Positions 7,117 through 62,908 of a stretch of 64,000 nt of DNA are shown here, piece by piece (the first letter of the stretch is position 1; every line of letters starts with the position of its first letter). The DNA comes from a virus. The DNA is taken from IMG/VR virus record IMGVR_UViG_3300017717_002521, positions 27,140 through 91,139 of that record; one strand, 5' to 3'. The notes under the pieces are model-generated. The model was given only the letters and a program-made list of their open reading frames with translations, searched no databases and was not told the origin of the DNA. The translations under genes were made by a program, and so were the position numbers.

Positions 7117-7836
7117 ATGAAAAATGCTGTAGTAGTTGTTGATATTAAACAGAAAGGCATACATTCTCTTTTACAGTATAACATAAATGCACTTAAACAA
7201 TATAGTCAACGAACCAGATCTGAATTAATTATTATCAGTTCTAAAATACTTGACCAGAAGTATAATCTTCATAAACAAGCTCCATATCCGTATCTTAGGT
7301 TTGAAAAAAATCAAATTTACCGTCTTTTCAAAGAATATGATCGAATATTAAGATTGGACAGTGATACTATGATAATGCAGAACTGCCCTAATTATTTTGA
7401 TTTAGATCCTAAGAATATGTATGTCACAAGAGAAGATGTTGGAAGTAGAAAAGAACCTAGGTTAAGACAAATAAAAACTATACAATCACAACTGGGTACT
7501 GTAGAAGGCTGGAATAGTTTCTACTTTAATAGCGGTGTCATATTAGCTTCTAGCATACATAAAGAAGCATTTAATTTAGATAATGTTGACCTGTCAAAAG
7601 TAAAAGGTGGACTTCAAGAACAAACGGTTCTTAACTGGCTTACTTTTAAATTAAAATTAAGTATCGTAGATTTAGGTCCTTATTTTAATTTTATTGAATT
7701 TTTTGAAACTGAAAATTTCGGTTTAAGAAAAAACTCCAATATAATACATTATGCTGGTAAAACAAACGATAAAAAAGTAAAAGATTTAAAAAGAGATATA
7801 ACCAACTTTAACAGTAAAAATAAAGAATTAATTTAA
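7117..7836 (+). CDS. glycosyltransferase, GT8-like
   Basis: LDSD, YFNSGV, EQTVLN, IIHYAG. Confidence 0.8.
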   Translation: MKNAVVVVDIKQKGIHSLLQYNINALKQYSQRTRSELIIISSKILDQKYNLHKQAPYPYLRFEKNQIYRLFKEYDRILRLDSDTMIMQNCPNYFDLDPKNMYVTREDVGSRKEPRLRQIKTIQSQLGTVEGWNSFYFNSGVILASSIHKEAFNLDNVDLSKVKGGLQEQTVLNWLTFKLKLSIVDLGPYFNFIEFFETENFGLRKNSNIIHYAGKTNDKKVKDLKRDITNFNSKNKELI

Positions 7837-10127: not shown

Positions 10128-10922
10128 ATGATTAAAATAGCTCATGAAGCTCCTATAGATATTTTTGACGAAGTTCAAAGGTTAACTGATTACGATTACG
10201 CTTTAGTTCATTTATTAGAGCAAAATGGTAGATATAGAGATACGTTTGAAAGAGCAGTTAAAAGAGGTAGAGAAGTTATTTTAGATAACTCTATTTTTGA
10301 GTTAGAAGAAGCATTTGAAGCTGATAGATTTGCATTATGGGTTGAAAGATTAAAACCTACTTGGTATATAGTTCCAGATGCATTGGAGAATGCTGAAAAG
10401 ACTATGGAACAAGCACTTGATTGGGTTAAAAGTTATAAAAGTATACCTGGGAAAAAAATAGGTGTTGTTCAAGGTAAAAACTATCACGAGATTGTAGCTT
10501 GTTATAAGTTTATGGACACTAGAGATATTGATATGATAGCTATTTCATTCGATTATTCGTATTATAGTGATTCTATTCCTCATCCTAACAAGTATGTTAG
10601 CTGGATGCTAGGACGTGTTAAGCTACTAGGAGATTTAGAGAGAGACGGTATAATTAATAAAGATAAACCTCATCACTTACTAGGTTGTGGATTACCTCAA
10701 GAATTTAGTTTTTATAAAAATGCTAACTATAAATGGCTCTACTCTTTAGATACTTCTAACCCAGTAGTCCACGGTCTAAAAGGTATAGAGTATGACAGAG
10801 AAGGACTTTGGTCTAAAGAATCTCAAAAGTTACATGAATTAATTAATGTACCTATAGAAGAGATTGATATTGAGAAAGTAACTAGTAATATAGAGAAGTT
10901 TAGATGGCTAACAAATGGATAA
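10128..10922 (+). CDS. dpdA: TGT-fold deazaguanine transglycosylase-like protein (DpdA-like)
   Basis: ILDNS..E, IVPD, IGVVQG, HHLLG, SLDTS TGT-like motifs; que-gene context. Confidence 0.72.
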   Translation: MIKIAHEAPIDIFDEVQRLTDYDYALVHLLEQNGRYRDTFERAVKRGREVILDNSIFELEEAFEADRFALWVERLKPTWYIVPDALENAEKTMEQALDWVKSYKSIPGKKIGVVQGKNYHEIVACYKFMDTRDIDMIAISFDYSYYSDSIPHPNKYVSWMLGRVKLLGDLERDGIINKDKPHHLLGCGLPQEFSFYKNANYKWLYSLDTSNPVVHGLKGIEYDREGLWSKESQKLHELINVPIEEIDIEKVTSNIEKFRWLTNG

Positions 10923-11431
10923 CATTCTTCAGTCAAACTGGAGCTGAGATAGCTGATTTATCTGAAAATATTGGAAGATGGCCTGATATTATTATTACTA
11001 ATAGTAGACCAGACCACTTAAGAACTATAGATCCTAGAATAGTAGAATACGGTTATACTGAAGTACCTAATAAACCTACAGTAAGTGATTTAGATGCTGT
11101 ATTACAAGATAATGCTGTTATAACATTACATGGTTGGTTGAGGATAATGCCTGAAGTAATATGTAATAAGTATTTGATTTATAATGGTCATCCTGGACTT
11201 ATTACTAAATATCCTGAACTTAAGGGTAAAGATCCTCAAGTAAAAGCTCATAAACTTGGACATGAAGTAGCAGGTGCAGTTATACATAAAGTAACAGCAG
11301 GAGTAGATGAAGGTAGGATTATTATGGAGGAATATTTCAATGCTACTCAGTTGGATCTTGATAGTTTATTTCGTATATTAAGAGATAGATCATTGTATAT
11401 GTGGTCTAATCTACTTAAACAGGTTTTATGA
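10904..11431 (+). CDS. PurN-like formyltransferase (DpdN-like)
   Basis: GWLRIM, NGHPGL..YP, IHKV..GVDEG; coupled to the dpdA-like gene. Confidence 0.82.
   Translation: MANKWITFFSQTGAEIADLSENIGRWPDIIITNSRPDHLRTIDPRIVEYGYTEVPNKPTVSDLDAVLQDNAVITLHGWLRIMPEVICNKYLIYNGHPGLITKYPELKGKDPQVKAHKLGHEVAGAVIHKVTAGVDEGRIIMEEYFNATQLDLDSLFRILRDRSLYMWSNLLKQVL
11351..11381 (+). promoter_or_regulatory. class 1 promoter inside formyltransferase 3' end
   Basis: TTG-N20-TATATTAA. Confidence 0.6.
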
Positions 11432-13201: not shown

Positions 13202-13473
13202 TGAATAAGTTTACATCAACCTACATAGTTTCATTATTAGCTATAATTTTAATATGGAATATAAGCCCAGATATCGATAACGAACCTATGTTGATGGAAC
13301 AAATCTCAGAAAACGAAAGAGTTGCAGAATCTATAGTACAGTACATTCAAGCTCCAAAAGGATTTTTTGGATACATTAATGAGATACTTACAACTGTAAT
13401 AGGTGTAGTGAACATAATAACATTTGGTTATCAAATGAAAGATAGAAAAAGAAAAACATTAAGACAGTAATGA
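13181..13473 (+). repeat. 24-bp direct repeats (13181-13204, 13450-13473) flanking one ORF
   Basis: AGAAAAAC(T/A)TTAAGACAGTAATGA, 23/24 identical. Confidence 0.85.
13201..13470 (+). CDS. small membrane protein on a repeat-flanked insert
   Basis: two hydrophobic segments; ends RKTLRQ like QueF. Confidence 0.6.
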   Translation: MNKFTSTYIVSLLAIILIWNISPDIDNEPMLMEQISENERVAESIVQYIQAPKGFFGYINEILTTVIGVVNIITFGYQMKDRKRKTLRQ

Positions 13474-13619
13474 TAGAAAAAGTAGAAGCATACATAATAC
13501 AGCATTATAAAAGAATGTATGGTGATAAACCTCTAATTATTGAAGAATTCGATTCTCATTTTACAGTTAAGTCAAATAAGGATGAATCTCCTCTTATATT
13601 AGGCAAAAGTATAGTATAA
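13470..13619 (+). CDS. small hypothetical protein (49 aa)
   Basis: TAATG coupling at both ends. Confidence 0.55.
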   Translation: MIEKVEAYIIQHYKRMYGDKPLIIEEFDSHFTVKSNKDESPLILGKSIV

Positions 13620-16874: not shown

Positions 16875-17573
16875 ATGAATATAAAATTAATTTGTTGCAT
16901 AGGGCTAGATTATGACTTAAATTTAGTTCCTCATTTTAGTAAACATTATTCTCAATATAATATAGATTCGTTTCATTTTATATTAAATAAAAAAGATGAA
17001 TTTAATACTACTGATTATAAAAAGTACTTCACCAACTTAATTTCAAATGGAGTAACGTTTCATAGCTGGGTAGGAGAATTTAATACTGTAGATAAGATTA
17101 ATAAATTTAATAAAGTAATAGAAAGCTCCTCTGAATCTCATATTCTATTAGCAGATGTTGACGAATTTCAAATACATAAAGGAGGAATTTATAAGGACTA
17201 TGTATGGGGAAATTTAATTGATAGAGTACCTAATAATAACTTAACAAAAAAAGTAACTAATAGAGATTTAAATAAACAGTTTCCTTTAAAAAGTAATTTA
17301 ACTAATTGGGATAATACTATTAAACCTTGTGTATTTCCTTCTTCGGAAAGATTGCAAACATCCCATTATATTACCACCCCGTATAATAATGAAGATACTA
17401 TAGAAGTTAACCATTACCGATGGACTAACACAAGATTACAAAAATCTAAAGATAGATATCGTATTTATTCTAGACTTAATAAAGAAGGTAAACGATGGCC
17501 ATCTGGTCATAAATTTGACTCACAAGACAGTTTACATGTTATTAGTAAACTACAACCTAAGTCTATTATATGA
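16875..17573 (+). CDS. GT2-like glycosyltransferase
   Basis: LADVDEF, NHYRW. Confidence 0.6.
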   Translation: MNIKLICCIGLDYDLNLVPHFSKHYSQYNIDSFHFILNKKDEFNTTDYKKYFTNLISNGVTFHSWVGEFNTVDKINKFNKVIESSSESHILLADVDEFQIHKGGIYKDYVWGNLIDRVPNNNLTKKVTNRDLNKQFPLKSNLTNWDNTIKPCVFPSSERLQTSHYITTPYNNEDTIEVNHYRWTNTRLQKSKDRYRIYSRLNKEGKRWPSGHKFDSQDSLHVISKLQPKSII

Positions 17574-18298
17574 ATCAAATAACCTCTGTACTTACCGTAG
17601 TTGAAAGACCCGAATACTTAAATACTCAAATAGACTGTATAAAAAATCAAAGTATAAACTCAGATATATTCATAGTTTGGAGGAATAAACAGCAATATGA
17701 TCTTAAATACCCAGCTATACTATATTTTAATGAATCTAGTCATTTTAATTCATTATATGGTAGATTTTATAATTCTTTACATATTAAAACTCCTTATGTG
17801 TTTATTTGCGACGACGATTTATTACCCGGCAAAAAATATTTAGAAAGATGTATAGAATTTAGTAAATCTAAAAACGATAAAGTAGTTATATCTTCATATG
17901 GTATGAAATTTAAAGAAGGAGAAAAAAAATATAATGTTAATAAAAGAATAAATCATAATACCTTTCCAAAAGTTCCTGTTAAAGTTGATATGGGAGGTCA
18001 AGGATGGTTTATGAAAACCGAATTACTTAAACTCTTTACTTCTTACCCTTATCTTTTAGATGATTCAGGAGAAGATATACATTTTTCATTTTGTTTGTTT
18101 AAAAATAGTATAGATATTTTTGTATTGGATAAAGATATTGATAATAAAGATACATGGCAAGATACTTGCAGAGGATCAAGAGGTAATGATGAAAAAGCTC
18201 AATGGAAAAATACTACTCATAAAATAGTAAGAGATAAACTTATAGATAAGTATACGTCTTTAGGTTGGAAATTTAACATAAATAAGTCTTTTTTGTAG
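17570..18298 (+). CDS. GT2-like glycosyltransferase
   Basis: ICDDD, GEDIHFS. Confidence 0.7.
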   Translation: MNQITSVLTVVERPEYLNTQIDCIKNQSINSDIFIVWRNKQQYDLKYPAILYFNESSHFNSLYGRFYNSLHIKTPYVFICDDDLLPGKKYLERCIEFSKSKNDKVVISSYGMKFKEGEKKYNVNKRINHNTFPKVPVKVDMGGQGWFMKTELLKLFTSYPYLLDDSGEDIHFSFCLFKNSIDIFVLDKDIDNKDTWQDTCRGSRGNDEKAQWKNTTHKIVRDKLIDKYTSLGWKFNINKSFL

Positions 18299-18883: not shown

Positions 18884-20928
<2,045 letters not shown>

Positions 20929-21208: not shown

Positions 21209-22021
21209 ATGAAGATAACTCATAGATTTAACCACTATACAGCTCATGAAGCTAATAAGACTCTTAAATGGGTACCTAACGATTTAGAAGAACTTTTTAA
21301 AGAAAGGCTAAAAAATGAACCTACAAATCCTAGTCTTAATTATTATTTAAAAAATCCTATAATTTATAAACTAAATAATTATGGATTTAGAAGTCCTGTT
21401 GATTATGTTGAAGGAATAGAAGGTAATGTATTTTTAGGGTGCAGCCATACTTTTGGTATAGGGCATCATCTGGAGAATACTTGGTCTTGGAAGCTTAATG
21501 AGTATGTTGGGGGTAATTTTATAAATTTATCAGTCGGTGGTACCGGTATCGGAACTGGGTTTCGCTTATTATATGGGATGAAGGATATAGTAAAGCCAAA
21601 AAATGTTTTTCTATTCTACCCTCATGTATATAGATATGAATATTTTGATCAGCGTTATCAAACTTGGGCTAATGTGTGTATCACTCAACTTTATAAAATA
21701 GAAACGAGAAATAAAAAATTTCTTTTAGAACAGAACAATGCTGAGATGTTTTATTATTTACATTATACTGCTATTAAAAATTTATGTTATGAATTAGACA
21801 TTCCTCTCTATAATGTTACCGAGTTTAATAAGTTCTGGGAAGATCCAGATGAAAATTCTCCTTTACCGCTTTGTGCAAGAGATGATCACCCTAATCCCAA
21901 GTTTCATGTTAATGTTTTTGAAAAATTTAAACAAATTTATGATAATAAAATAAACATTTATAAAAGACCTGAAGAATTATGTGATTTAAAATATAACAAA
22001 GGACTAAAGCCAATTTTGTAA
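21209..22021 (+). CDS. SGNH-like hypothetical (GCSHT family)
   Basis: NNYGFRS, LGCSHTFG, INL..GG, DDHP. Confidence 0.6.
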   Translation: MKITHRFNHYTAHEANKTLKWVPNDLEELFKERLKNEPTNPSLNYYLKNPIIYKLNNYGFRSPVDYVEGIEGNVFLGCSHTFGIGHHLENTWSWKLNEYVGGNFINLSVGGTGIGTGFRLLYGMKDIVKPKNVFLFYPHVYRYEYFDQRYQTWANVCITQLYKIETRNKKFLLEQNNAEMFYYLHYTAIKNLCYELDIPLYNVTEFNKFWEDPDENSPLPLCARDDHPNPKFHVNVFEKFKQIYDNKINIYKRPEELCDLKYNKGLKPIL

Positions 22022-30886: not shown

Positions 30887-32716
30887 ATGAAAAAGTTACT
30901 ACTAGTTTTATTTTTTACTGCGATGGGGATGTTCGAGGGTCATTCACAGGCCCTCGTTCAAACCTATGTTGATAGATGCACTGGGCAAGTAAGTGTCTTT
31001 AGTGTGCCTATGAACGGCAGTACTGTAGTAGCTTTTTACAATAGGTCTAGAGTATTTACTTCTCAAGATTTCCAAAATGGAACTCTTCAGGCTTGGTTGG
31101 AAGAGACCTATTTATGGTGGATAAGTCTTAGTCCTTGCTCCTCAACAACAACTGGAGCTCAAGCTACTCAACAGACTACTCAACAAACCACGCAACAGGC
31201 AACTCAGGCAGCTACTAATGCTGCCTCAACTGCTGCTGCTAATACGACAACTAATGTTCCATCTACCCCTGTTAGTCCTCCCCCAACTACTCAAACACCT
31301 CAACCTACTACTACAGCTCCAGATACTTCGAGTACGAATACTGCTGCTCAAAATACGACTGCTACCGGAGGAAATACTACTAGCCAAGGAAACAATACGT
31401 CAACATCCGCAGGATCTACAAACAGCCAAGGTAGTAACGAACCGAATACGAGCTCAAATAACTCTTCGTCTGGAACAGAAAATACAAGTACAGAAGCAAC
31501 TACTGAAGCTTCTTCAACCGAAACATCAAACACTGAATCAGGATCTTCAGGAAGTGAGGGATCTACAACTGAAGAATCAACAACAGAATCAACTCAAGAA
31601 AGCTCATCAGAGTCAACATCAGAAGAATCCTCTACTGAAGAAGTAAGTACTGAGGAAAGTTCTACTGAAGAGACTACTACCGAAGAATCAACTGAAGAAA
31701 CTTCTACCGAAGAATCTACAGAAGAATCTAGTTCAGAAGAAAGTACTGAAGAAAGTACTGAAGAAAGCTCTGAAGAAACTACTGAAGAAACTACCGAAGA
31801 AGAGTCTACAGAAGAATCAACTGAGGAGGAGTCTACAGAAGAAGAAACTGAAACAGAAGAAGCAGATGAAGAATCAAGTGAAGAAGAATCTGACGAGAGC
31901 TCAGAGGAGGAATCAGAAGAAGAGGATACTGAAGAAGAATCAGAATCCGATGAAGAGGAAGAAACTGAAGAAGAAGAGTCAGAAGAGGAAAGCAGCAACG
32001 AGGATGAAGAGGAAGACGATAAGAAGAAAAAGAAAAAGCGAAACCTTGCTCCTCCTATCGTTACAGCCAATGTACTATCTCAAGAAATGCCTACAGGAGG
32101 ATTCTCTCAGGCAGCAATGTTTGGTGTAAGTCAATCTTCCTTAATGGGGACTGAAACTTATGGACTTAATGTTATGGTATATGATAACTTAAAGCAGTTT
32201 ATGTTAAATGCTAACTACTCAAAAGTTCATATAAACAAAGAAGGAAGAGTGAGTAGAGTATATTCAGCATCATTAGGAGCTATGAAAATGTTTACTACCT
32301 ATATGGGTATGATGAATCATAGCTGGACTTTCTTAGGACAAAAAGGATCAGTAGCAGGTATAGCAGTAGGTTCTAGTGTTACTATGTTAGATATTGATTC
32401 AATTAAAGGACAGTTGTATTTAGATACTATTCTATTAGGTTTTTCTTTAACTAGTTTTTATACTAAACCTTTACAGTATAGTCCTAAGCTTACTATAAGT
32501 CCTATGGTAGCAGTATCTTCTCCTTTTGTTCAATATGAAATGTTTACCAAAGAATCTATATGGAATAAGGACTTAATGGTAATAGCAGGAGCATCTTTTA
32601 GTTACAAACTTACTCAAAGGTTTGGTATTAACGTTGGAGCTAATATAATAGAATCTACAGCTCCTAATTTTCCTACTATGAAAACATTTACGATTGGCGG
32701 TAGATTAAGTTTCTGA
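30887..32716 (+). CDS. exported protein with Thr/Ser/Glu-rich stalk and C-terminal beta-barrel-like domain
   Basis: GHS|Q signal; long STEE repeats; amphipathic strands ending GGRLSF. Confidence 0.7.
   Translation: MKKLLLVLFFTAMGMFEGHSQALVQTYVDRCTGQVSVFSVPMNGSTVVAFYNRSRVFTSQDFQNGTLQAWLEETYLWWISLSPCSSTTTGAQATQQTTQQTTQQATQAATNAASTAAANTTTNVPSTPVSPPPTTQTPQPTTTAPDTSSTNTAAQNTTATGGNTTSQGNNTSTSAGSTNSQGSNEPNTSSNNSSSGTENTSTEATTEASSTETSNTESGSSGSEGSTTEESTTESTQESSSESTSEESSTEEVSTEESSTEETTTEESTEETSTEESTEESSSEESTEESTEESSEETTEETTEEESTEESTEEESTEEETETEEADEESSEEESDESSEEESEEEDTEEESESDEEEETEEEESEEESSNEDEEEDDKKKKKKRNLAPPIVTANVLSQEMPTGGFSQAAMFGVSQSSLMGTETYGLNVMVYDNLKQFMLNANYSKVHINKEGRVSRVYSASLGAMKMFTTYMGMMNHSWTFLGQKGSVAGIAVGSSVTMLDIDSIKGQLYLDTILLGFSLTSFYTKPLQYSPKLTISPMVAVSSPFVQYEMFTKESIWNKDLMVIAGASFSYKLTQRFGINVGANIIESTAPNFPTMKTFTIGGRLSF
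31555..32020 (+). repeat. low-complexity (S/T)(S/T)EE coding repeats
   Basis: repeated ACTGAAGAA/TCAGAAGAA-type units. Confidence 0.85.
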
Positions 32717-43719: not shown

Positions 43720-44092
43720 TATTTCACCAGGAGAGTTATTAGATAAAATTTCTATTATAGAACTCAAACTTCTTAAAATAAACGATACAGCTAAACTTAA
43801 TAATATTATGATTGAGTTTGAAGCTCTAAACCCTCAAGTAGTAGAATTATTAGAAAAATTTAAAGAACCTCTTAAACAAAAGTATTTGCATCTTTCAGAA
43901 GTTAATGAAACGTTATGGGATATAGAGGATGCTATTAGAGTAAAGGAAAAGAATAAAGAGTTTGATAGTAAATTTATAGAGCTTGCAAGATCAGTTTATA
44001 GACAAAATGATAAAAGAAGTATTATTAAAAAGTTTATAAATCAAATGACTGACTCTAGTTTAACAGAAGAAAAATCATATGAAGAATACTAA
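43703..44092 (+). CDS. DUF6165-like protein
   Basis: ISPGELLDKISI, LWDIED.IR, ARSVY.ND.R, EEKSY. Confidence 0.75.
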   Translation: MNIKVNISPGELLDKISIIELKLLKINDTAKLNNIMIEFEALNPQVVELLEKFKEPLKQKYLHLSEVNETLWDIEDAIRVKEKNKEFDSKFIELARSVYRQNDKRSIIKKFINQMTDSSLTEEKSYEEY

Positions 44093-44963
44093 AGTTCTAG
44101 TAATTACTTATGGTTACTTTGGGGATATAGCTTTTGCGTCTTCTTTAGCTGAGTTTCTAAAAAAAGAATACGATACTGTTGATTACCTGATAGGGTTTCC
44201 TCAAATGAGAAAATTAATAAATAATAATCCTTTTATAAACAAAGTATTCGTACCTCCTAATCCAGGTCCAGCTCCTTCAACTAGCGTTGAATTTCAGTTA
44301 ACGTATTCGAAAGTTATACAATTAGGTCCTTTATCGTTTACTAAACCTCCAGTGGTAGAATATAAACAGCAAGCAGGAATAAAGGATAAAAGCCCTGAAT
44401 ATAAACTTTATACCGATCCTGATTTGGATTCAGCTGTTCAGACTTTATTTACTGATTTGCCTAAAAATAAAAAAGTTATAGCTGTTATGAATAATTGGAA
44501 GGAGAAAACTTTTACTTTTACAGAAGAGCAATATAAAGCAGGAATAGATGTTCCAAATTTAGGTTATGGTGGGGCTCATAGAGATACAGATAAAATTATT
44601 TCGGTACTCTCAGATTATTTTACTATATTAACAGTAGGAGTAGATGGAAGCAATCAACATCAAACTGTTAATACTGATGATTACGATTCAAAATCTATTT
44701 TATTTGAAACTTCTATTATGAAATACTGTAATGCTTTTGTAGGTGCTGAAGGAGGTTTATGTAATTTAGCTGCAGGAGTTGGCACCAGTACCATTATTAC
44801 AGGAGATTTTATACATCAACTGTATGGATGGAATGGAGTAATAAAAAAAATTAATGAGCCTAAATTAGGACCCGAAAATTATTTTAAAGAGGGTAAGCAT
44901 AAAACATTAGACCCTTACCTATCAGATGAACAAGTTGTTGAACAAATAAAATTATTACTATGA
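44079..44963 (+). CDS. GT9-like glycosyltransferase
   Basis: GDI, NNPFI, FVGAEGG..NLAAGVG. Confidence 0.7.
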   Translation: MKNTKVLVITYGYFGDIAFASSLAEFLKKEYDTVDYLIGFPQMRKLINNNPFINKVFVPPNPGPAPSTSVEFQLTYSKVIQLGPLSFTKPPVVEYKQQAGIKDKSPEYKLYTDPDLDSAVQTLFTDLPKNKKVIAVMNNWKEKTFTFTEEQYKAGIDVPNLGYGGAHRDTDKIISVLSDYFTILTVGVDGSNQHQTVNTDDYDSKSILFETSIMKYCNAFVGAEGGLCNLAAGVGTSTIITGDFIHQLYGWNGVIKKINEPKLGPENYFKEGKHKTLDPYLSDEQVVEQIKLLL

Positions 44964-55095: not shown

Positions 55096-55836
55096 ATGAT
55101 TATAAATCACAAGTATAAGTTTATTTTTTTTAAGAGTAAAAAAGTTGGCGGAACTAGTATGGAACTAGCTCTTGGTAAATTTACTACTGATAGTGATATA
55201 GTCACAAGAATAAGAAGTGAGGAAGAAGAAGCATTGAGAGATAATTTAGGTATTAATAATAAAAATGCTGGTAGTCTAGTAAATCATAGTACAGCTGCAG
55301 ATTTATTAAAGTTTCTAGAAGCACCTCAATACAGAGATAAGGATATATTTAATTCTTATTTTAAATTTACTATTATTAGAGAACCAGTTGACCTTTTTAT
55401 TAGTAAATACTTTTTTCAAAAGAACTCAGGCCCTAAAAATCCACCCCCAGACCATATTAATGAATGGGTTAAATTATTAAAGGAACGAAGATTATACGGT
55501 AAGAAAAATGTAAGTGATGAAAACTGGAATATATATTCTTTAGATAATAAACTCATTACTGACGATTATATTACATACAGTAAGGATTCAGGACCAGGAT
55601 CTAAAATGTATGAAGACTGTTCAAGAATATCAGAAAAACTAAACTTTCCTGAAAATTTAGCAGATTTATTTTACAATACCAGAGCAAAAACTCAATATAG
55701 AGAAAAGGTCAAAGTAACTCTTTCTAAAGAATCTATAGATTTTATAGAAGAAGTTTCTAAACCTGAAAGAGAAGTTACTGGAATGAAAATAGCTCGCAAA
55801 GAATATGAGGGTACAATAACAAGGCCGTTTATATAA
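55096..55836 (+). CDS. sulfotransferase family 2-like
   Basis: KFIFF...KVGGTS, IREPVD.FIS. Confidence 0.75.
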   Translation: MIINHKYKFIFFKSKKVGGTSMELALGKFTTDSDIVTRIRSEEEEALRDNLGINNKNAGSLVNHSTAADLLKFLEAPQYRDKDIFNSYFKFTIIREPVDLFISKYFFQKNSGPKNPPPDHINEWVKLLKERRLYGKKNVSDENWNIYSLDNKLITDDYITYSKDSGPGSKMYEDCSRISEKLNFPENLADLFYNTRAKTQYREKVKVTLSKESIDFIEEVSKPEREVTGMKIARKEYEGTITRPFI

Positions 55837-55837
55837 A

Positions 55838-56539
55838 ATGAAAATAGATAGAGCTTTAATTATAAGAAGACTCCAAGTTCCTATTTCAATTGAGTATGCT
55901 GAAATGTGTGCTGCTTCATGCGAAGAGAATAATCTTCCTTATGAGTTTATAGATGCAGTTGAATTTCTATCTTGTGATGAAGCATTTAAATCTGTGGGTA
56001 CATTTAGACAGAAGAAGTATGTAAATAAGGATGGGCATTGTAATGTGCATGCATCTCATATAAAATGCTGGAAACGTATTATAGAGTTAGATAAAGCTTG
56101 CATTATATTAGAACATGATGCTATTGTAAAAGGTGATGTAACAGATGTAGATATATTAGATAATACCATTACTACTTTTGGACATAGAGTAACAGAGTTA
56201 GATGAATATACTCCTCCTTCTCCTGCTATCGGGTTAATCGAAATAGAACGTTCATTCGGAGTACATGCTTGTGGACTTACTCCTACTACAGCTAATACTT
56301 TATGGCAAGCTACAAAAGATAAAGGTATATTTACAGGAGTAGATAACCTATTAATGATTCATAAATCTTCAGGCTTACCTCTCTTTGTATGTGAACCTCC
56401 TCAAGTTGTATGTTGGACTAGAGTCTCTACTATAGAGATTGAAAAAGGTAACTTTAAATCCAACACTACTAACTTTAATGAATCTTTTACAGACGGTTGG
56501 TTAAAAGGTTCTAATAAAAACGTAAAACAAATTATTTAG
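55838..56539 (+). CDS. GT25-like glycosyltransferase
   Basis: FIDAV, SH..CW, IILEHDA. Confidence 0.7.
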   Translation: MKIDRALIIRRLQVPISIEYAEMCAASCEENNLPYEFIDAVEFLSCDEAFKSVGTFRQKKYVNKDGHCNVHASHIKCWKRIIELDKACIILEHDAIVKGDVTDVDILDNTITTFGHRVTELDEYTPPSPAIGLIEIERSFGVHACGLTPTTANTLWQATKDKGIFTGVDNLLMIHKSSGLPLFVCEPPQVVCWTRVSTIEIEKGNFKSNTTNFNESFTDGWLKGSNKNVKQII

Positions 56540-57285: not shown

Positions 57286-58113
57286 ATGAAAGATGTTATG
57301 TTAAGTTTTGGTAAAGGTTTAGATGGGTACCTAACCAAAGATCAGATTAGAAACTCCTCTCCATTAGTATTTGCAGATGCACCTACTAACCCAGATGTTA
57401 GTAGTAAATACTTGTTTGTTAACACTGAAACTATTATTGATGATCTAGATAAGTTAGGATGGTTACCAGTTCAAGCTGCTCAAAGAAAGAGCAGAAAAGA
57501 AGGAGGTACTATCTTTTCAAAGCATATGGTTGCTTTCCAGAATCCAGATATTAAGATTACTTCAGCTGATGGTGATGATGCTTACCCTAGAATACTTCTT
57601 ACTAACTCTCATGATGGTATGCAATCGTTTAAATTCTCAGTAGGTATATTTAGACTAGTATGTAGTAACGGTTTAGTTGTTGCTGATGAGAAATTTAGTG
57701 ACTTTAATATTAAGCATAAGGGGTATACTTTTACTGAACTTAGAAATGTAGTTAAGCAAGCAGTAGAAGATCTTCCTAATAGAGTTCAGGTAATGAATGA
57801 TATGAAGAATAGAATCTTAACTGAAGAAGAGAAGAGAAAATTAGCTTTAGATGCTATGCTTATTAGAGCTGGAGTTAAAGAGCTTCAGTATGATGAAGAG
57901 ACTATTACTGATATTTTAGATCCTAAAAGAGATGCTGATAAAGGAAATGACCTTTGGAGAGTCTTCAATGTTGTTCAAGAGAAGATTACTCAAGGAGACT
58001 TTCATGCTGCTTTAACTGGAGCTAAAGTACGTAAGGTACGTAAGATTAAATCCTTTGAGAAGGATATGAAAGTTAATAAAGAGTTGTTTAAGTTAGCTAC
58101 AGCATTAGTTTAA
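57286..58113 (+). CDS. DUF932/DUF945-family protein
   Basis: NSHDG, FRLVCSNG, LWRVFNVVQE. Confidence 0.85.
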   Translation: MKDVMLSFGKGLDGYLTKDQIRNSSPLVFADAPTNPDVSSKYLFVNTETIIDDLDKLGWLPVQAAQRKSRKEGGTIFSKHMVAFQNPDIKITSADGDDAYPRILLTNSHDGMQSFKFSVGIFRLVCSNGLVVADEKFSDFNIKHKGYTFTELRNVVKQAVEDLPNRVQVMNDMKNRILTEEEKRKLALDAMLIRAGVKELQYDEETITDILDPKRDADKGNDLWRVFNVVQEKITQGDFHAALTGAKVRKVRKIKSFEKDMKVNKELFKLATALV

Positions 58114-58178: not shown

Positions 58179-58586
58179 ATGTATTCAATTGCAAACAAAC
58201 TACCTAGTGTAGAATTTTTAAAAGAAAGATATGAAGTTGATCCTTCATCACCTTCAGGGTTAAGACACAAATTTGATGTTAGAAATCGTTCTGCATTAGC
58301 AGGAGACCGTGCTGGTTCTAGAAACGGTAATGGTTATTACCATATCAGGGTTAATGGTTCTTATACTAATACTTCTAGAATTATTTGGAAAATAATTAAA
58401 GGTAAAGACCCAGATCAAGTTATAGATCATATAGATGGTAATCCGGCAAACAATAGAATCTCTAACTTAAGAGATGTTACTCAAAGAGAGAATTCGTTAA
58501 ACCGAAGAGATTTTAAATTAAGAAATACAAATGATAGAAGTTTTAAAACATATTTTAGGAATTTGTGGAGAGCATTGGCATCCTAA
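58179..58586 (+). CDS. free-standing HNH endonuclease
   Basis: IDHIDGNPANNRISNLR...EN. Confidence 0.85.
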   Translation: MYSIANKLPSVEFLKERYEVDPSSPSGLRHKFDVRNRSALAGDRAGSRNGNGYYHIRVNGSYTNTSRIIWKIIKGKDPDQVIDHIDGNPANNRISNLRDVTQRENSLNRRDFKLRNTNDRSFKTYFRNLWRALAS

Positions 58587-59606: not shown

Positions 59607-59638
59607 TTATTCTGAGCTATTTATAATAAAATTATATA

Positions 59639-61468
59639 ATGAAAGGAACATTATTTTCAGCAGATTTTGTATTCGATTCGTCGAATAATGCTAGGTTATT
59701 AGAAATTAATACTGATACTTCTTTAACTACCCCCGGTAATGAAAATTTAGATTTTACAGATTTTGGCACTGTTTTATCAGATAGCTCTCTGGATACTCTT
59801 CATATTATCTTTAAGCCTTTTCACCAACTAATAGTAGATAAATTAGTAGATTTTGTAAATAATAATGTTTCAAACATTACTACAATAACATTTCAAGAAG
59901 AAGAAACATGTTCGCTTTATGTAGGTGCAGTTGAAGATGCTAGTAATAAGTTTATACTTAGAATGGCTTACGATGAAGCAGCTATATTAGATTCTGAATA
60001 CGCTAAATCTGAAATAAAATTATATAGTTTATTCAATACTAATAGTGATTTAGATTCTTTACCTCCCTCTTATCATTCTTCTTCTGTTCACGGTATAATA
60101 GATACTATTTCTCAATCGTTTAATGACCCTAATATTCCTGACTTTGTTAAAAAAACTGAAAACGCATCTGGAGCTACTTTATTATCTATAGGATTCTTAA
60201 AAGCAGGTCTTCCGGAAACAGGATCAGATTATAGACTTAATACTTTAATAGAAGAACAAAAAAAAGAAGATGTATTAATATCTAATTTTTTACCCAACCT
60301 ATCAGGTTCTTATACTACTTCAGTAAGATCTATGCAAATAGTATATGGTAATGATTTAGATTTATGTTTTGTTGGTGAACATCAACAAGTTTCTTTATTT
60401 GATATTCCTTCTTCTATTACTACTGGGAGTCTTGACGGTTCTGACAAAGTCTCTCACGAGGTCCATCAAAAACACAGACACGAATTTACAACGAATCATC
60501 CTAAGTATAAGGGAGGTTTAATTAAAACTACTAATATTCTCAGCTCATCAGGTGATGCGTTTAATATTCAAACACTTAACTCTGGATCTGATTACTTTTA
60601 CCAATCTTACTTTGTATCTGGTTCTCCGGATACTGATGCTGTAACTGAACTTAACGATTGGTTTTACTCAGGATCTAACTTTCCTTCAGGTTCCTATTTG
60701 ACTTCTTCTAATGTAATTTTAGTAGAAGAAAACCTTAATCCTGATTTAGACATATACAAATTAGAATTAGAATCTGGTGATACTTTCTTATTAGGAAGTG
60801 TATCTTTATTACCGGTATTAGATACTGGCTCTAATGTAATTACTTGGAAATCTACTGAAAAAGTTTTACCCGGTAATAAAGTATTTGACGAGAATAATAC
60901 TTCCTATTCAGTAGTTTCTAATACTTATCAAATTTCTGATACTAATGGGGAATATGATCTTTATCAACCTAATATGGAAGTAATAGATACTTATATACTT
61001 AAAGGCTCTAGTATGAATTTATTAGTTCATAACCCCTTTGGAGCGGGTAGAGGAGGATGCTTTATTAAAGGTACTGAAATTACTTTACCTAACGGTGATA
61101 ATAAAGCTATAGAAGATATAACTCAAGGTGAGGAAATATTAACTCACAATCATGATTCCGGATTAGACGAAGTAGGTGTAGTAGGTTTTATAGAAACTCT
61201 AGAAGCAAATAAAATAATTAAGATAACTACGGATGGTAAACATACAAAGGAAATTACCTGCACCCTTGAACATCCTTTTTATGCTAATGGTAAGTATATC
61301 CAAGCAGAATATTTAGAAGTTATGGATCTATTGCATACAAATTATGGTGAGGATGTATTTATAAGCAAAGTAGAAATTTTAGACGAAACTCATACAGTCT
61401 ATAATTTAAGAGACGTATCTGATAACCATAACTTTTATGCTAACAACATATTAGTTCATAATAAATAA
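59639..61468 (+). CDS. ATP-grasp-like N-terminal domain fused to two tandem Hint domains
   Basis: ADF...LLEINTD; Hint1 GLIKTTNI...LLVHN; linker PFGAGRGG; Hint2 CFIKGT...TLEHPF...VYNL...NFYANNILVHNK. Confidence 0.75.
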   Translation: MKGTLFSADFVFDSSNNARLLEINTDTSLTTPGNENLDFTDFGTVLSDSSLDTLHIIFKPFHQLIVDKLVDFVNNNVSNITTITFQEEETCSLYVGAVEDASNKFILRMAYDEAAILDSEYAKSEIKLYSLFNTNSDLDSLPPSYHSSSVHGIIDTISQSFNDPNIPDFVKKTENASGATLLSIGFLKAGLPETGSDYRLNTLIEEQKKEDVLISNFLPNLSGSYTTSVRSMQIVYGNDLDLCFVGEHQQVSLFDIPSSITTGSLDGSDKVSHEVHQKHRHEFTTNHPKYKGGLIKTTNILSSSGDAFNIQTLNSGSDYFYQSYFVSGSPDTDAVTELNDWFYSGSNFPSGSYLTSSNVILVEENLNPDLDIYKLELESGDTFLLGSVSLLPVLDTGSNVITWKSTEKVLPGNKVFDENNTSYSVVSNTYQISDTNGEYDLYQPNMEVIDTYILKGSSMNLLVHNPFGAGRGGCFIKGTEITLPNGDNKAIEDITQGEEILTHNHDSGLDEVGVVGFIETLEANKIIKITTDGKHTKEITCTLEHPFYANGKYIQAEYLEVMDLLHTNYGEDVFISKVEILDETHTVYNLRDVSDNHNFYANNILVHNK

Positions 61469-61471
61469 ACT

Positions 61472-61603
61472 ATGGCAATTTATAGAGAAAAAACTTCATT
61501 TGAAGTACAAAATAAACCAGTTCATCCTATTACTGCTGACCAGAAGACTAAAGTTCGTGCAATTGTTACAAATTTTATTACATACTTGAAAGCTTCTATT
61601 TAA
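61472..61603 (+). CDS. small hypothetical protein (43 aa)
   Basis: MAIYREK...LKASI; fills the gap between the Hint gene and the oxygenase. Confidence 0.55.
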   Translation: MAIYREKTSFEVQNKPVHPITADQKTKVRAIVTNFITYLKASI

Positions 61604-61607
61604 TTAA

Positions 61608-62105
61608 ATGTTAAAGGTTATAGATAATTTTCTTTCAGAAGAAATTTGTAATAAAATTATAAAAGATAATTTATCCAATTTTAAACCTATTCCTGAACTA
61701 CCTCATGTTAGAAGATGTACTTCTAAGTTTATAGAGGCCCCTAAAATTAGAGAAGAACTTATATTTATAGTTAACGAAATAAGAAAAGATCTTACTGTAG
61801 ATTCTACTTTCGAATTTATTCAATACAGTAAAGATGACCATTTTGAATGGCATAACGACGTTAGATTAAATAATCCTAAAACCGAAACTATTTCAGCTAT
61901 TATATTATTAAACAATAATTTTAAGGGGGGTGATTTGCTATATAGAGAAAATTTAAAGATAACTAAATCTAACATTAATGTTGGTTCTTTAATTATTTTT
62001 CCTTCTAAATTGCAACACAAAGTTAATAAAATTACAGAAGGTTTTAGATATAGTTTATGCTGCTGGTTCTATAAAGACAATACTAAATTTAAATCAATAA
62101 TATAG
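61608..62105 (+). CDS. 2OG-Fe(II) oxygenase
   Basis: WHND, FKGGDL, FPS..QHKV, G.RYSL. Confidence 0.9.
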   Translation: MLKVIDNFLSEEICNKIIKDNLSNFKPIPELPHVRRCTSKFIEAPKIREELIFIVNEIRKDLTVDSTFEFIQYSKDDHFEWHNDVRLNNPKTETISAIILLNNNFKGGDLLYRENLKITKSNINVGSLIIFPSKLQHKVNKITEGFRYSLCCWFYKDNTKFKSII

Positions 62106-62119
62106 CTTATAGGTTTCAT

Positions 62120-62908
62120 ATGAACGTCGCTATTATAGTTTGGGGGTTTTATAGACAGTTTGATGCTGCTGTAGAATTCTGGGATGAGAGTTATTCTGAA
62201 TATAACCCTGATTATTTTTTTTCTATATGGGAGGATAGTATGGAAAAATGTACTCTAACTGGTTTTAACTTTGATATTAGAAAAAAAGCTACTAGAAAAG
62301 ACATTACTAAACACTACCCAGATGCTAATATAAATATATTTAAAAATAAAGCTTGTAAATTAGTTGCTGCTGAAAGAATATGGTTTTTATTAGAAAAAGC
62401 AGTCGACTCTATTCTTGAAAGTAATAAGAAATATGACGTTATTATAGTTAAACGAGCTGATGCATTTGAATGGAGAGATTACAAAATAACTGACAATTTA
62501 AAAAATAATACAATCTATACTTACCAAGGTAGACAGAGAGATTCTTATGGGAACCCACATTACGATTTTGGGGATATTTTCTTTTATGGTCGTAGTGATA
62601 GTATGGTTAAATTTATTAAAGGTTTTGTTAACTCTAAATATCTTAAACTAAAAGATGAATTTTGCCCACACAAAAGCCCAGATCAGTTCTTATGGGAATC
62701 AGATTTAGATATAGAGATATTTCCTGGCAATCATCATGAGCAATTAGTTCGCCCTATACACTTATTTATGTTTCCTTCTAATAAACCTATTAAAGAGTTT
62801 TTAGATGAGAATGCATGGATGTTTAATGGGTTAGAAGGACTATGGCATTATATTAGAACAAATAGAAGACAGTACTACTTTATTAGTGAGGACGAAATAG
62901 GAGAATAA
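62120..62908 (+). CDS. glycan-modification-associated hypothetical (related to 46863)
   Basis: VAIIVWG..R, FSIW, YDVIIVKRAD, DIFFYG. Confidence 0.55.
   Translation: MNVAIIVWGFYRQFDAAVEFWDESYSEYNPDYFFSIWEDSMEKCTLTGFNFDIRKKATRKDITKHYPDANINIFKNKACKLVAAERIWFLLEKAVDSILESNKKYDVIIVKRADAFEWRDYKITDNLKNNTIYTYQGRQRDSYGNPHYDFGDIFFYGRSDSMVKFIKGFVNSKYLKLKDEFCPHKSPDQFLWESDLDIEIFPGNHHEQLVRPIHLFMFPSNKPIKEFLDENAWMFNGLEGLWHYIRTNRRQYYFISEDEIGE

Follow-up and report, generated by a model that had tools for sequence, protein, structure and literature searches.

What does a phage protein do that appears to carry, in a single chain of 609 residues, an ATP-dependent ligase, two Hint domains, and one lysine at its very end? 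The gene for this protein lies in a stretch of 64,000 nucleotides, called the window in the following (bases 27140-91139 of the 91-kb IMG/VR virus record IMGVR_UViG_3300017717_002521, completeness estimate 55%), which comes from an uncultured marine phage. The protein consists of an N-terminal domain that is likely a circularly permuted ATP-grasp ligase, a degenerate Hint domain (dHint), the octapeptide spacer PFGAGRGG, a canonical Hint domain (Hint2), and Lys609 (Table 1). The reading on which we place about half of our confidence is that of a self-processing enzyme of a hitherto undescribed family: the ligase, the dHint, and a lysine-bearing tail would form the enzyme, Hint2 would be inserted in the tail, and the ligase would act together with a small partner protein. 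A preliminary description of this DNA had seen the same three-domain layout, namely a GspS-like ATP-grasp, a Hint with the C-terminal cutting residues only, and an intact Hint, and in this it was right. It had, however, taken the octapeptide for the product that the two Hints excise, and it had let the gene begin at 59617, which is located in the upstream spacer and out of frame; the open reading frame (ORF) itself is as described, with its ATG at 59639 and its stop codon at 61466-61468.

A Family Seen Only on Phage Contigs

Members of the family have been seen only on phage contigs. There are at least 480 full-length homologues, and a profile of the N-terminal domain yields 354 clusters at 50% identity, in every member of which the ligase domain begins at Met1. 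Nearly all full-length members among the 150 best clusters listed have at least 460 residues, which is enough for a dHint to be present. For the comparison of neighboring genes, 157 related loci were fetched from IMG/VR viral contigs, which are up to 333 kb long. A tblastn search of cultured phages with the whole protein found only a match to the Hint, in a Ruminococcus phage, and no match to the ligase body. No family in Pfam, PHROGs, NCBIfam, or PADLOC covers the ligase-dHint body, and full-text literature searches for an ATP-grasp with a Hint, a BIL, or a RiPP (a peptide made by the ribosome and altered after translation) returned no description of such a layout. New are the combination of domains, the conserved partner, and the logic of the tail; the individual folds are already known.

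The N-Terminal Domain Is Likely a Permuted ATP-Grasp Ligase

Residues 1-292 likely adopt the permuted ATP-grasp fold, as judged from a predicted structure and one sequence motif. The AlphaFold2 (AF2) model has a predicted local distance difference test score (pLDDT) of 92.7 and a predicted template modeling score (pTM) of 0.88. In Foldseek its top matches are 5oeu, 7uk8, 3kak, and 3o98 (E values from 2.5e-5 to 3e-4), and in VIA they are the GSS-like 5oeu (Z 9.5), YgiC 7uka (Z 9.0), and GspS 2io7 (Z 8.8), the alignments to the top permuted ligases spanning 205-214 residues and lying within model residues 1-290. The best matches in both structure searches are permuted ATP-grasp ligases only (Z 7.7-9.5), among them the glutathione synthetases of nematodes, plants, and humans, YgiC, YjfC, GspS, trypanothione synthetase, and the fungal Cp1B. 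With classical ATP-grasp enzymes (TTLL, RimK, LysX/ArgX) the alignment does not start before residue ~50, which is what a permutation predicts. The model thus points to an enzyme that is likely an ATP-driven amide-bond ligase. Its best neighbors (Z 8.6-9.5) are the peptide-spermidine ligases YgiC and YjfC, the synthetase half of GspS, and the eukaryotic glutathione and homoglutathione synthetases, and with the YgiC/GspS class it shares both the permuted strand order and the motif D-x3-D-x5-[KR]-LLE-x-N-x-DT; unlike these enzymes it is fused to Hints, occurs only on phage contigs, and gives no sequence-profile match.

The motif, which by analogy to ATP-grasp enzymes would be part of the metal and nucleotide site, reads D-F-V-F-D-x5-R-L-L-E-I-N-T-D-T and has a spacing identical to that of D-L-A-W-D-x5-K-L-L-E-N-N-A-D-T at positions 102-120 of YgiC from Escherichia coli. 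Asp9, Asp13, Glu22, Asn24, and Asp26 correspond to Asp102, Asp106, Glu115, Asn117, and Asp119 of YgiC, and the offset of +93 is that of the structural alignment, in which model residues 1-287 are paired with chain residues 94-380. Across the family alignments Asp9, Glu22, and Asp26 are invariant, and Asp13 and Asn24 are conserved in at least 90% of the sequences. The two elements from which the preliminary description had recognized the motif, ADF (A8-D9-F10) and LLEINTDT (L20-L21-E22-I23-N24-T25-D26-T27), are both present, but nine residues lie between them rather than seven. FVKK, also mentioned there, is found as F169-V-K-K172. Lys59, Lys172, and Lys188 are invariant or nearly so in the family alignments, and a weak profile alignment places Lys171/Lys172 near the lysine of the YgiC VVKP motif.

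At the level of sequence the relationship is faint. A local hhalign alignment of the N-domain profile with the single YgiC sequence covers the range of the structural alignment but is weak overall (13% probability), with confidence only at the motif; the corresponding global alignment is meaningless. Searches with the N-domain found no match in Pfam at E <= 10, GSP_synth (PF03738) included, no ligase among the PDB chains (phmmer and a 45-sequence profile), and no ligase family in PHROGs, NCBIfam, or PADLOC, and the PF03738 profile has no match over the whole virus record. Among the viral structures of BFVD there is no match at E <= 0.001, the best being a tubulin-tyrosine ligase of Marseillevirus (E 0.043). 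In the ESM Atlas the N-domain is nearest to unnamed clusters of ~300 residues and to ATP-grasp families at scores of 0.90-0.93, which may be taken as a lead only.

The Degenerate Hint Has Kept Only the Catalytic Residues of Its C-Terminus

That residues 293-465 are a Hint, as the preliminary description had proposed on the basis of a few motifs, is borne out by structure and by profile. The AF2 model of residues 286-473 has a pLDDT of 92.7, and its best structural match is the BIL domain 2lwy from Clostridium thermocellum (VIA Z 18.8, root-mean-square deviation 1.4 A, 138 of 138 residues). In this alignment model residues 8 and 180 come to lie close to chain residues 1 and 135, respectively, and in the superposition Gly293 takes intein position 1 and Asn465 that of the C-terminal Asn. 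Second-best is BIL2 of the Tetrahymena protein BUBL, followed by mini-inteins and the Hedgehog autoprocessing domain; indeed, all 32 matches with Z >= 5 are intein, BIL, Hedgehog, or Vint domains (Foldseek E 1.4e-7). Pfam has no match to residues 293-465. The dHint profile, however, aligns with that of Hint2 from end to end (hhalign probability 96%, E 4.3e-9), with a conserved insertion of ~25 residues, SGSPDTD..FPSGS..TSS, at residues ~327-357 of the dHint.

What has been lost is clear from the same alignment. Position 1 is Gly293, invariant in 94 homologues, rather than the nucleophile Cys, Ser, or Thr, and LGSVSLLPV stands opposite the T-x-x-H of Hint2, so that the conserved block-B His is missing. 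Asp450 of block F is retained. The dHint ends in LLVHN, and its last two residues, His464-Asn465, are invariant in three family alignments, the most divergent clade included, and could be located in 311 of 329 family members. The features listed in the preliminary description, Gly in place of Cys1 (its codon starts at 60515), no block-B His, and a preserved terminal His-Asn, are thus all found. From its sequence the dHint is best explained as an old component that is integral to the enzyme; the N-terminal nucleophile and the His of block B are gone, and at most it could cut after Asn465.

The Canonical Hint Is an Exchangeable Cassette

Hint2 is the only part of the protein that Pfam detects. 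It matches PT-HINT (PF07591) with 3e-12 and 47.4 bits, which is above the cut-off, and also Intein_splicing; the NCBIfam model intein_Nterm is matched with 26.6 bits at a cut-off of 24.5. As already read by the preliminary description, it has an intact Cys474, T542-L-E-H545, and a terminal VHNK. It does not conform to either of the two obvious classes: the residue at +1 is Lys609, followed by the stop codon, rather than the Cys, Ser, or Thr of class-1 splicing inteins, and the toxin domain that follows the Hint in PT-HINT toxins is absent, there being one lysine only. Closest are the type A BILs, which have Cys1 and His-Asn but no +1 nucleophile and which mostly cleave but can also ligate through the freed amine (PMC4031507). 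Hint2 resembles these in Cys1, in the block-B T-x-x-H, in the terminal His-Asn, and in the lack of Cys, Ser, or Thr at +1. It differs from them in that the phage domains form a tandem array of 1-3 copies with which an enzyme ends, with a single, almost invariant lysine as "C-extein" and an additional degenerate Hint upstream.

Hint2 and the rest of the protein do not share one history. Identities between family members P0001 and P0004 are 64% in the ligase, 61% in the dHint, and 91% in Hint2; between P0001 and P0002 they are 82, 71, and 51%, and between P0001 and P0010 they are 70, 64, and 28%, respectively. The identity of the dHint follows that of the ligase; the identity of Hint2 does not. 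The canonical Hint units fall into subtypes which are found in any of the positions 1 to 3 and in many combinations, and which therefore behave as exchangeable cassettes that recombine among distant bodies. As each unit has only ~135-165 residues, there is no homing endonuclease inside. By these comparisons of sequence, Hint2 is a laterally exchanged cassette with a history discordant with that of the body.

Of 143 proteins in which the canonical Hints were counted, 11 have none, 47 have one, 73 have two, and 12 have three, and in every unit Cys1, T-x-x-H, and His-Asn are conserved. This conservation bears on the simplest explanation of the locus, that there is no processing at all and that both Hints are structural remnants in a 609-residue multidomain enzyme that stays intact. 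The loss of half of the catalytic set from the dHint would fit, but a remnant is not expected to keep all catalytic residues in all canonical units and an invariant His-Asn in the dHint, and the body can do without its caps, as natural Hint-less forms demonstrate. We regard it as very unlikely that the protein is not processed.

One group of relatives deviates at the end of the last Hint. In this third type of cap (P0020, P0031, P0032, P0093, P0138, P0145, P0153, P0179) the last Hint is without His-Asn and ends in ...SGLGDN..LN.KYQRQ....(I/T)KHL(G). This C-terminus resembles the end, ...K-x-K-H-L(S), of the small partner protein.

Tails, Caps, and the Conserved Lysine

What follows the His-Asn of the dHint was classified in the 311 members in which this dipeptide was located. 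Canonical Hints come after 0-3 residues in 165 members, after 4-20 residues in 52, and after a Cys-rich peptide in 11, which makes a total of 228 Hint-capped relatives. The others have an uncapped Cys-rich tail (54 members), an uncapped short tail of 4-20 residues (19), a long uncapped tail without Cys (6), an uncapped tail of 0-3 residues (1), or a self-cleaving domain that resembles Peptidase_S74 (3). Where the tail is Cys-rich and uncapped, its typical sequence is HN-x-C-W-C-P-W-N-Y-C-G-H-W-C-N-S-x-Y-C-P-x-C-(Gly/Pro-rich)-K-x. It is characteristic of a large sister clade (P0223, P0229, P0241, P0262; loci L078-L157, e.g., L078:5001-6503), in which a tail of 23-40 residues with six Cys and one Lys stands directly after the dHint His-Asn; the consensus x-CWCPWNYCGHWCNSxYCPxC-(G/P-rich)-K-x has 266 matching stretches in IMG/VR. 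Relatives with the six-Cys peptide are mostly uncapped (54 versus 11 capped), and in some the peptide, then 27-35 residues long, is bracketed by two Hints.

In a few relatives (P0208, P0242, P0247, P0255; L076, L130) the canonical Hint is replaced by a Peptidase_S74-like "intramolecular chaperone" domain (S-D-x-R-L-K-x-N-I...). The matches to PF13884 (P0247 2.7e-4, P0208 3.5e-3, P0242 6.5e-3) are just below the cut-off of 22 bits and all cover profile positions 1 to 49-50.

However different the tails are, they have a lysine in common. All 74 uncapped tails contain one, 72 of them within the last four residues, and in the six-Cys tails there is exactly one in 51 of 53. When canonical Hints are present, the residue after the last of them is Lys in 196 of 205 proteins, and in 138 the whole "C-extein" is this single Lys; linkers between tandem Hints start with Arg or Lys in 93 out of 130 cases. 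Lys609 of the window protein corresponds to the single conserved lysine near the end of the uncapped tails. Deleting the Hints on paper makes the correspondence visible. For example, P0226 then ends in ...C-S-T-C-Y-G-G-K-K, to be compared with an uncapped ...C-I-G-C-G-F-G-S-G-G-Q-K, and the window protein ends in PFGAGRGG-K, to be compared with the natural HN-AKIEPPK or HN-K; natural Hint-less forms end in HN plus 1-10 residues. Because the uncapped tails always have a lysine, because a lysine follows the last Hint, and because deletion of the Hints recreates the uncapped layout, Hint2 is best read, from the sequence pattern, as a laterally exchanged intervening element of the type-A-BIL kind directly in front of the tail lysine.

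The same tails could be thought of in another way, with release by the dHint as the main event: cyclization of Asn465 would free the spacer, Hint2, and Lys609 together as a cargo, for which other clades would have the six-Cys peptide instead. In polymorphic toxins, PT-HINT domains probably set free the modules on their C-terminal side, and the dHint has kept Asp450 of block F and has an invariant His-Asn regardless of whether it is followed by Hints, by an S74-like domain, by a six-Cys peptide, or by a short tail. On the other hand, a free Hint is not known to have any activity, the window protein has Pro at +1, a position that varies greatly across the family (Ala 95, Cys 49, Pro 38, Ser 37), and some tails consist of a single lysine (P0191), which is implausible as a cargo. 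We therefore consider release of such a cargo quite unlikely to be the main function.

Proposed Processing of the Enzyme

For the self-processing enzyme with Hint2 as an element inserted in its tail, the steps that we infer, cleavage, ligase activity, and partner binding, would be the following. The N-terminal domain would be a minimal permuted ATP-grasp amide ligase that joins a carboxylate to an amine, and the C-terminal tail, always lysine-bearing, would here read PFGAGRGG-K. Hint2 would most likely remove itself after translation: a thioester would form at Gly473-Cys474, Asn608 would cyclize, and Lys609 would be re-joined to Gly473 as in a ligation of the BIL type, possibly through the lysine amine, or would be lost. 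The product would be a ligase-dHint of ~52 kDa with a tail of 8-9 residues, laid out as the natural Hint-less relatives are. The dHint would cut only after Asn465, perhaps as a regulated or terminal step, and the ligase would then work with the 43-residue protein encoded downstream, perhaps on its own lysine-bearing tail.

A more far-reaching version, to which we hold only tentatively, is that phages have here a device for the modification of peptides or proteins, composed of a ligase whose own lysine tail, a six-Cys peptide in relatives and PFGAGRGG-K in the window protein, would serve as its substrate and be freed by a dHint of the Asn-lyase type, and of a partner of 45 residues. The canonical Hints would in this case be a new class of intervening elements with the lysine at +1 as acceptor, and their reaction could be called "lysine splicing," leading to a peptide or an isopeptide bond.

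Several observations weigh against the self-processing enzyme. The phage protein begins at the motif and is without the ~100-residue N-terminal substrate-binding part of GspS-type enzymes, for which reason the class of substrate cannot be read from homology, and Arg100 of YgiC is replaced by Ser7, which is invariant in the phage family. The residue before the first canonical Cys1 is Gly in the window protein, but the commonest residue in this position is Pro (88 of 228 relatives). From intein expression systems it is known that Pro before Cys1 disfavors thioester formation, and self-removal may therefore not be general. In the larger clade canonical Hints are nearly universal (217 of 241 by class counts) and have kept all catalytic residues, which argues for a function beyond harmless self-removal. 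Finally, of the putative partner protein only Tyr4 is near-invariant.

Such a function could be a transfer reaction like that of Hedgehog or BUBL. The thioester at Gly473-Cys474 would be resolved by a nucleophile from outside, such as a polyamine, a lipid, or a lysine on the 43-residue partner or on a protein of the virion or the host, and the ligase body would become covalently attached without ATP. Hint2 has retained all the residues required to form the thioester, the near-universal active Hints of the larger clade suggest that they are of use, and BUBL BIL2, which is among the best structural neighbors, is reported to couple the domain upstream of it to lysines (PMC8616854). However, in natural Hint-less members both the partner and the entire body are retained, so that transfer is not the core function, the Hint cassettes are swapped freely among distant bodies, and the near-invariant lysine at +1 agrees better with an acceptor inside the protein than with one outside it. 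All in all transfer to an outside acceptor appears unlikely.

The Octapeptide Is a Clade-Specific Segment

The spacer between the two Hints is where the preliminary description and the present analysis differ most. It had been proposed that cyclization of Asn465 and the thioester at Cys474 together free an activated peptide, PFGAGRGG, which is then cyclized or ligated and tailored by the products of neighboring genes. The residues and boundaries on which this rested are correct (the spacer follows Asn465 as residues 466-473), a dHint with His-Asn, a peptide, and a Hint with Cys1 do succeed each other, and homologues conserve the Gly1/His-Asn and Cys1 pattern. There are relatives in which the six-Cys peptide is bracketed likewise, and in the clade of the window protein the spacer has a conserved motif. 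Nevertheless, we consider excision highly improbable. The inter-Hint segment mostly comprises 0-3 residues (165 of the 228 capped relatives), and the RGG end, which had been likened to that of ubiquitin, is unique to the window sequence among the 36 members of its clade, in which its spacer is also the shortest. The excised peptide would begin with Pro and would thus be without an N-terminal Cys, Ser, or Thr for ligation. Most six-Cys relatives have no second Hint, and a thioester is therefore not required for the function of that cargo. Also, the conserved lysine after the Hint would be left unexplained.

The analogy to engineered cyclization does not carry over for similar reasons. SICLOPPS constructs have the same order of a C-cutting unit, a peptide, and an N-thioester unit, and an inactive Npu construct (5ol6) is at rank 31 of the structural matches of the dHint. 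In these, however, the flanks are the halves of a split intein, whereas the phage protein has two complete Hints of separate history, the peptide starts with Pro, and in most relatives the spacer is absent.

The 36-member clade, to which the window protein belongs with a support of 0.995, comes from a tree of the enzyme body (FastTree, midpoint-rooted, 311 sequences, the 18 members without a located His-Asn being left out). Spacers in this clade have the motif x-[FY]-G-[AG]-[GA]-R, after which come 2-9 residues that vary and are rich in aromatics; the usual length is 12, and near-invariant are only Gly3 and Arg6. In the nearest outgroups the spacers have 2-3 residues, and family-wide the segment after the dHint His-Asn ranges from 0 to more than 60 residues. 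One might see in the spacer a remnant of the six-Cys cargo, since MAFFT aligns its PFGA under the PCGN of the latter. But the body tree nests the window clade among forms with spacers of 2-3 residues, and a secondary origin is at least as likely. On these sequence comparisons the octapeptide is a clade-specific segment of the tail or linker, which may have a clade-specific role, and not a conserved excised product, because the spacer has 0-3 residues in most relatives and RGG is unique.

Comparison With Known Systems

Several systems already known come near to the phage protein in one respect or another. In BUBL from Tetrahymena (BIL2: 6y75, 6tmm), Hint-type domains are likewise found on both sides of a short polypeptide, and BIL2 is reported to form a lysine isopeptide from the thioester (PMC8616854). 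The phage protein is different in that there is no ubiquitin-like domain, that only 8 residues lie between the Hints and their RGG is not conserved, that the upstream Hint has no capacity for a thioester, and that an ATP-grasp ligase is fused in front. With the PT-HINT domains of toxins (PF07591) the phage protein shares a Hint that may free what lies C-terminal of it, which fits the dHint and the six-Cys tails of relatives; unlike in the toxins, the upstream module is an enzyme rather than a region for secretion or filaments, and a toxin domain is absent.

In borosin-type "self-sacrificing" RiPP precursors such as OphMA the core peptide is fused to its own modifying enzyme. The phage enzyme, too, has a C-terminal peptide in the same chain, and in relatives this peptide is fast-changing, with six Cys and one Lys. 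The differences are that the phage enzyme is an ATP-grasp and not a methyltransferase and that release would be autocatalytic via the Hint Asn rather than by a separate protease.

If the proposal is true, natural Hint chemistry is joined here to an ATP-dependent ligase, and the protein would be the second natural system after the ciliate BUBL in which stacked Hints flank a short polypeptide. The near-invariant lysine would predict a variant of splicing or cleavage with a lysine acceptor, of interest to intein chemists and to protein engineers in search of a traceless or isopeptide ligation that needs no Cys. The family is a large one, with its 354 clusters and hundreds of viral contigs. In view of the fast-changing Cys-rich tails of relatives, it may stand for a hitherto unrecognized way in which small peptides are produced or attached by large aquatic phages.

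The Partner Protein, Neighboring Genes, and the Window

The ORF of 43 residues starts 3 nucleotides after the stop codon of the ligase gene. Most of the 157 related loci, from the Hint and the six-Cys clades alike, have a homologous ORF of 43-55 residues 1-37 nucleotides downstream. These ORFs share (I/V)-Y/I-K/R as a conserved element close to the N-terminus and, at the C-terminus, a helix that ends in ...K-x-K-H-(L/S), and in the window clade in ...L-K-A-S-I. There is no match to a family in Pfam, PHROGs, NCBIfam, or PADLOC, and scores in the ESM Atlas are at most 0.76, which is uninformative.

The preliminary description had also made the downstream genes part of a self-contained system. 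Of this the 43-residue ORF stands, being a conserved partner in nearly every related locus. The 2-oxoglutarate (2OG)-Fe(II) oxygenase ending in KSII is present as described but is only loosely linked, and the ORF of 262 residues is not linked at all. The oxygenase is the third gene in the closest loci; elsewhere its position varies, often with several copies. A related ligase, Cp1B, is paired with a 2OG oxygenase in the fungal pathway to E-64 (PMC12568646). A dedicated tailoring enzyme was considered here too and rejected, since these phages carry many 2OG genes at varying positions. The 262-residue ORF, which had been called a glycan-type enzyme, has no family match in Pfam or PHROGs and does not occur in any of the 77 related loci that were fetched first.

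Table 1. Coordinates of the features discussed, numbered from the first nucleotide of the window
Feature	Position	Strand	Basis
Whole gene, 609 aa + stop: permuted ATP-grasp (likely), degenerate Hint, spacer, canonical Hint, Lys	59639..61468	+	ORF list
Residues 1-292, likely circularly permuted ATP-grasp ligase domain, GspS/YgiC/eukaryotic glutathione-synthetase class	59639..60514	+	AF2, Foldseek, VIA
Residues 9-27, candidate metal/nucleotide-site motif	59663..59719	+	Analogy to Mg2+/ATP site of ATP-grasp enzymes
Residues 293-465, degenerate Hint (dHint)	60515..61033	+	hhalign, AF2, VIA
His464-Asn465, candidate Asn-cyclization cleavage site	61028..61033	+	Family alignments
Residues 466-473, PFGAGRGG, spacer or tail segment between two Hints	61034..61057	+	Clade alignment
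Residues 474-608, canonical mini-Hint of type-A-BIL kind (Hint2): Cys474, T542-x-x-H545, H607-N608	61058..61462	+	Pfam, NCBIfam
Lys609, lone residue after the last His-Asn ("C-extein")	61463..61465	+	Family comparison
43-aa ORF, conserved small partner protein	61472..61603	+	ORF list, synteny
2OG-Fe(II) oxygenase ending KSII	61608..62105	+	PF13640 3.9e-11 (Pfam), ORF list
262-aa ORF	62120-62908		
Free-standing HNH endonuclease	58179-58586		PF13392 3e-13
DUF932 protein	57286-58113		PF06067 2.4e-31
Sulfotransferase and GT25 glycosyltransferase	55096-56539		PF03567 1.6e-10 (sulfotransferase)
ORFs ending K-x-[LI]-[ILFM]-stop	7117-7836, 16875-17573, 21209-22021, 44079-44963, 55838-56539, 61608-62105		
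ORFs with looser matches to this ending	10904-11431, 13470-13619, 17570-18298		
Other 609-aa ORF	30887-32716		
GroEL	19195-20832		

The ending of the oxygenase recurs in the window. K-x-[LI]-[ILFM]-stop is found on 6 ORFs as compared to 0.48 expected (P ~1e-5). It is shared by unrelated enzymes, namely glycosyltransferases of families GT8, GT25, and GT64, a formyltransferase, and the 2OG oxygenase, the genes for which are spread over 55 kb and are not clustered around the ligase gene.

Upstream of the ligase gene, at a distance of 1 kb, there is a gene for a free-standing HNH endonuclease. Of 77 loci that are otherwise syntenic only 2 contain it, and it is thus probably a mobile insertion. The DUF932 protein, also encoded upstream, is conserved in 14 of the 77 loci first fetched, and the sulfotransferase and GT25 glycosyltransferase genes 3 kb upstream are unmatched in these.

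The window as a whole has a G+C content of ~31%, with all gene-sized ORFs on the plus strand, and codes for a DNA polymerase, GroEL, and many glycosyltransferases. Its other ORF of 609 residues, tried as a paralogue of the ligase-Hint protein, turned out to be unrelated (BLASTP E 0.62) and has no PHROG match. The GroEL shares 67% identity with its counterpart in Flavobacterium phage vB_FspM_immuto (160 kb), a likeness that hints at a host from the Bacteroidota.

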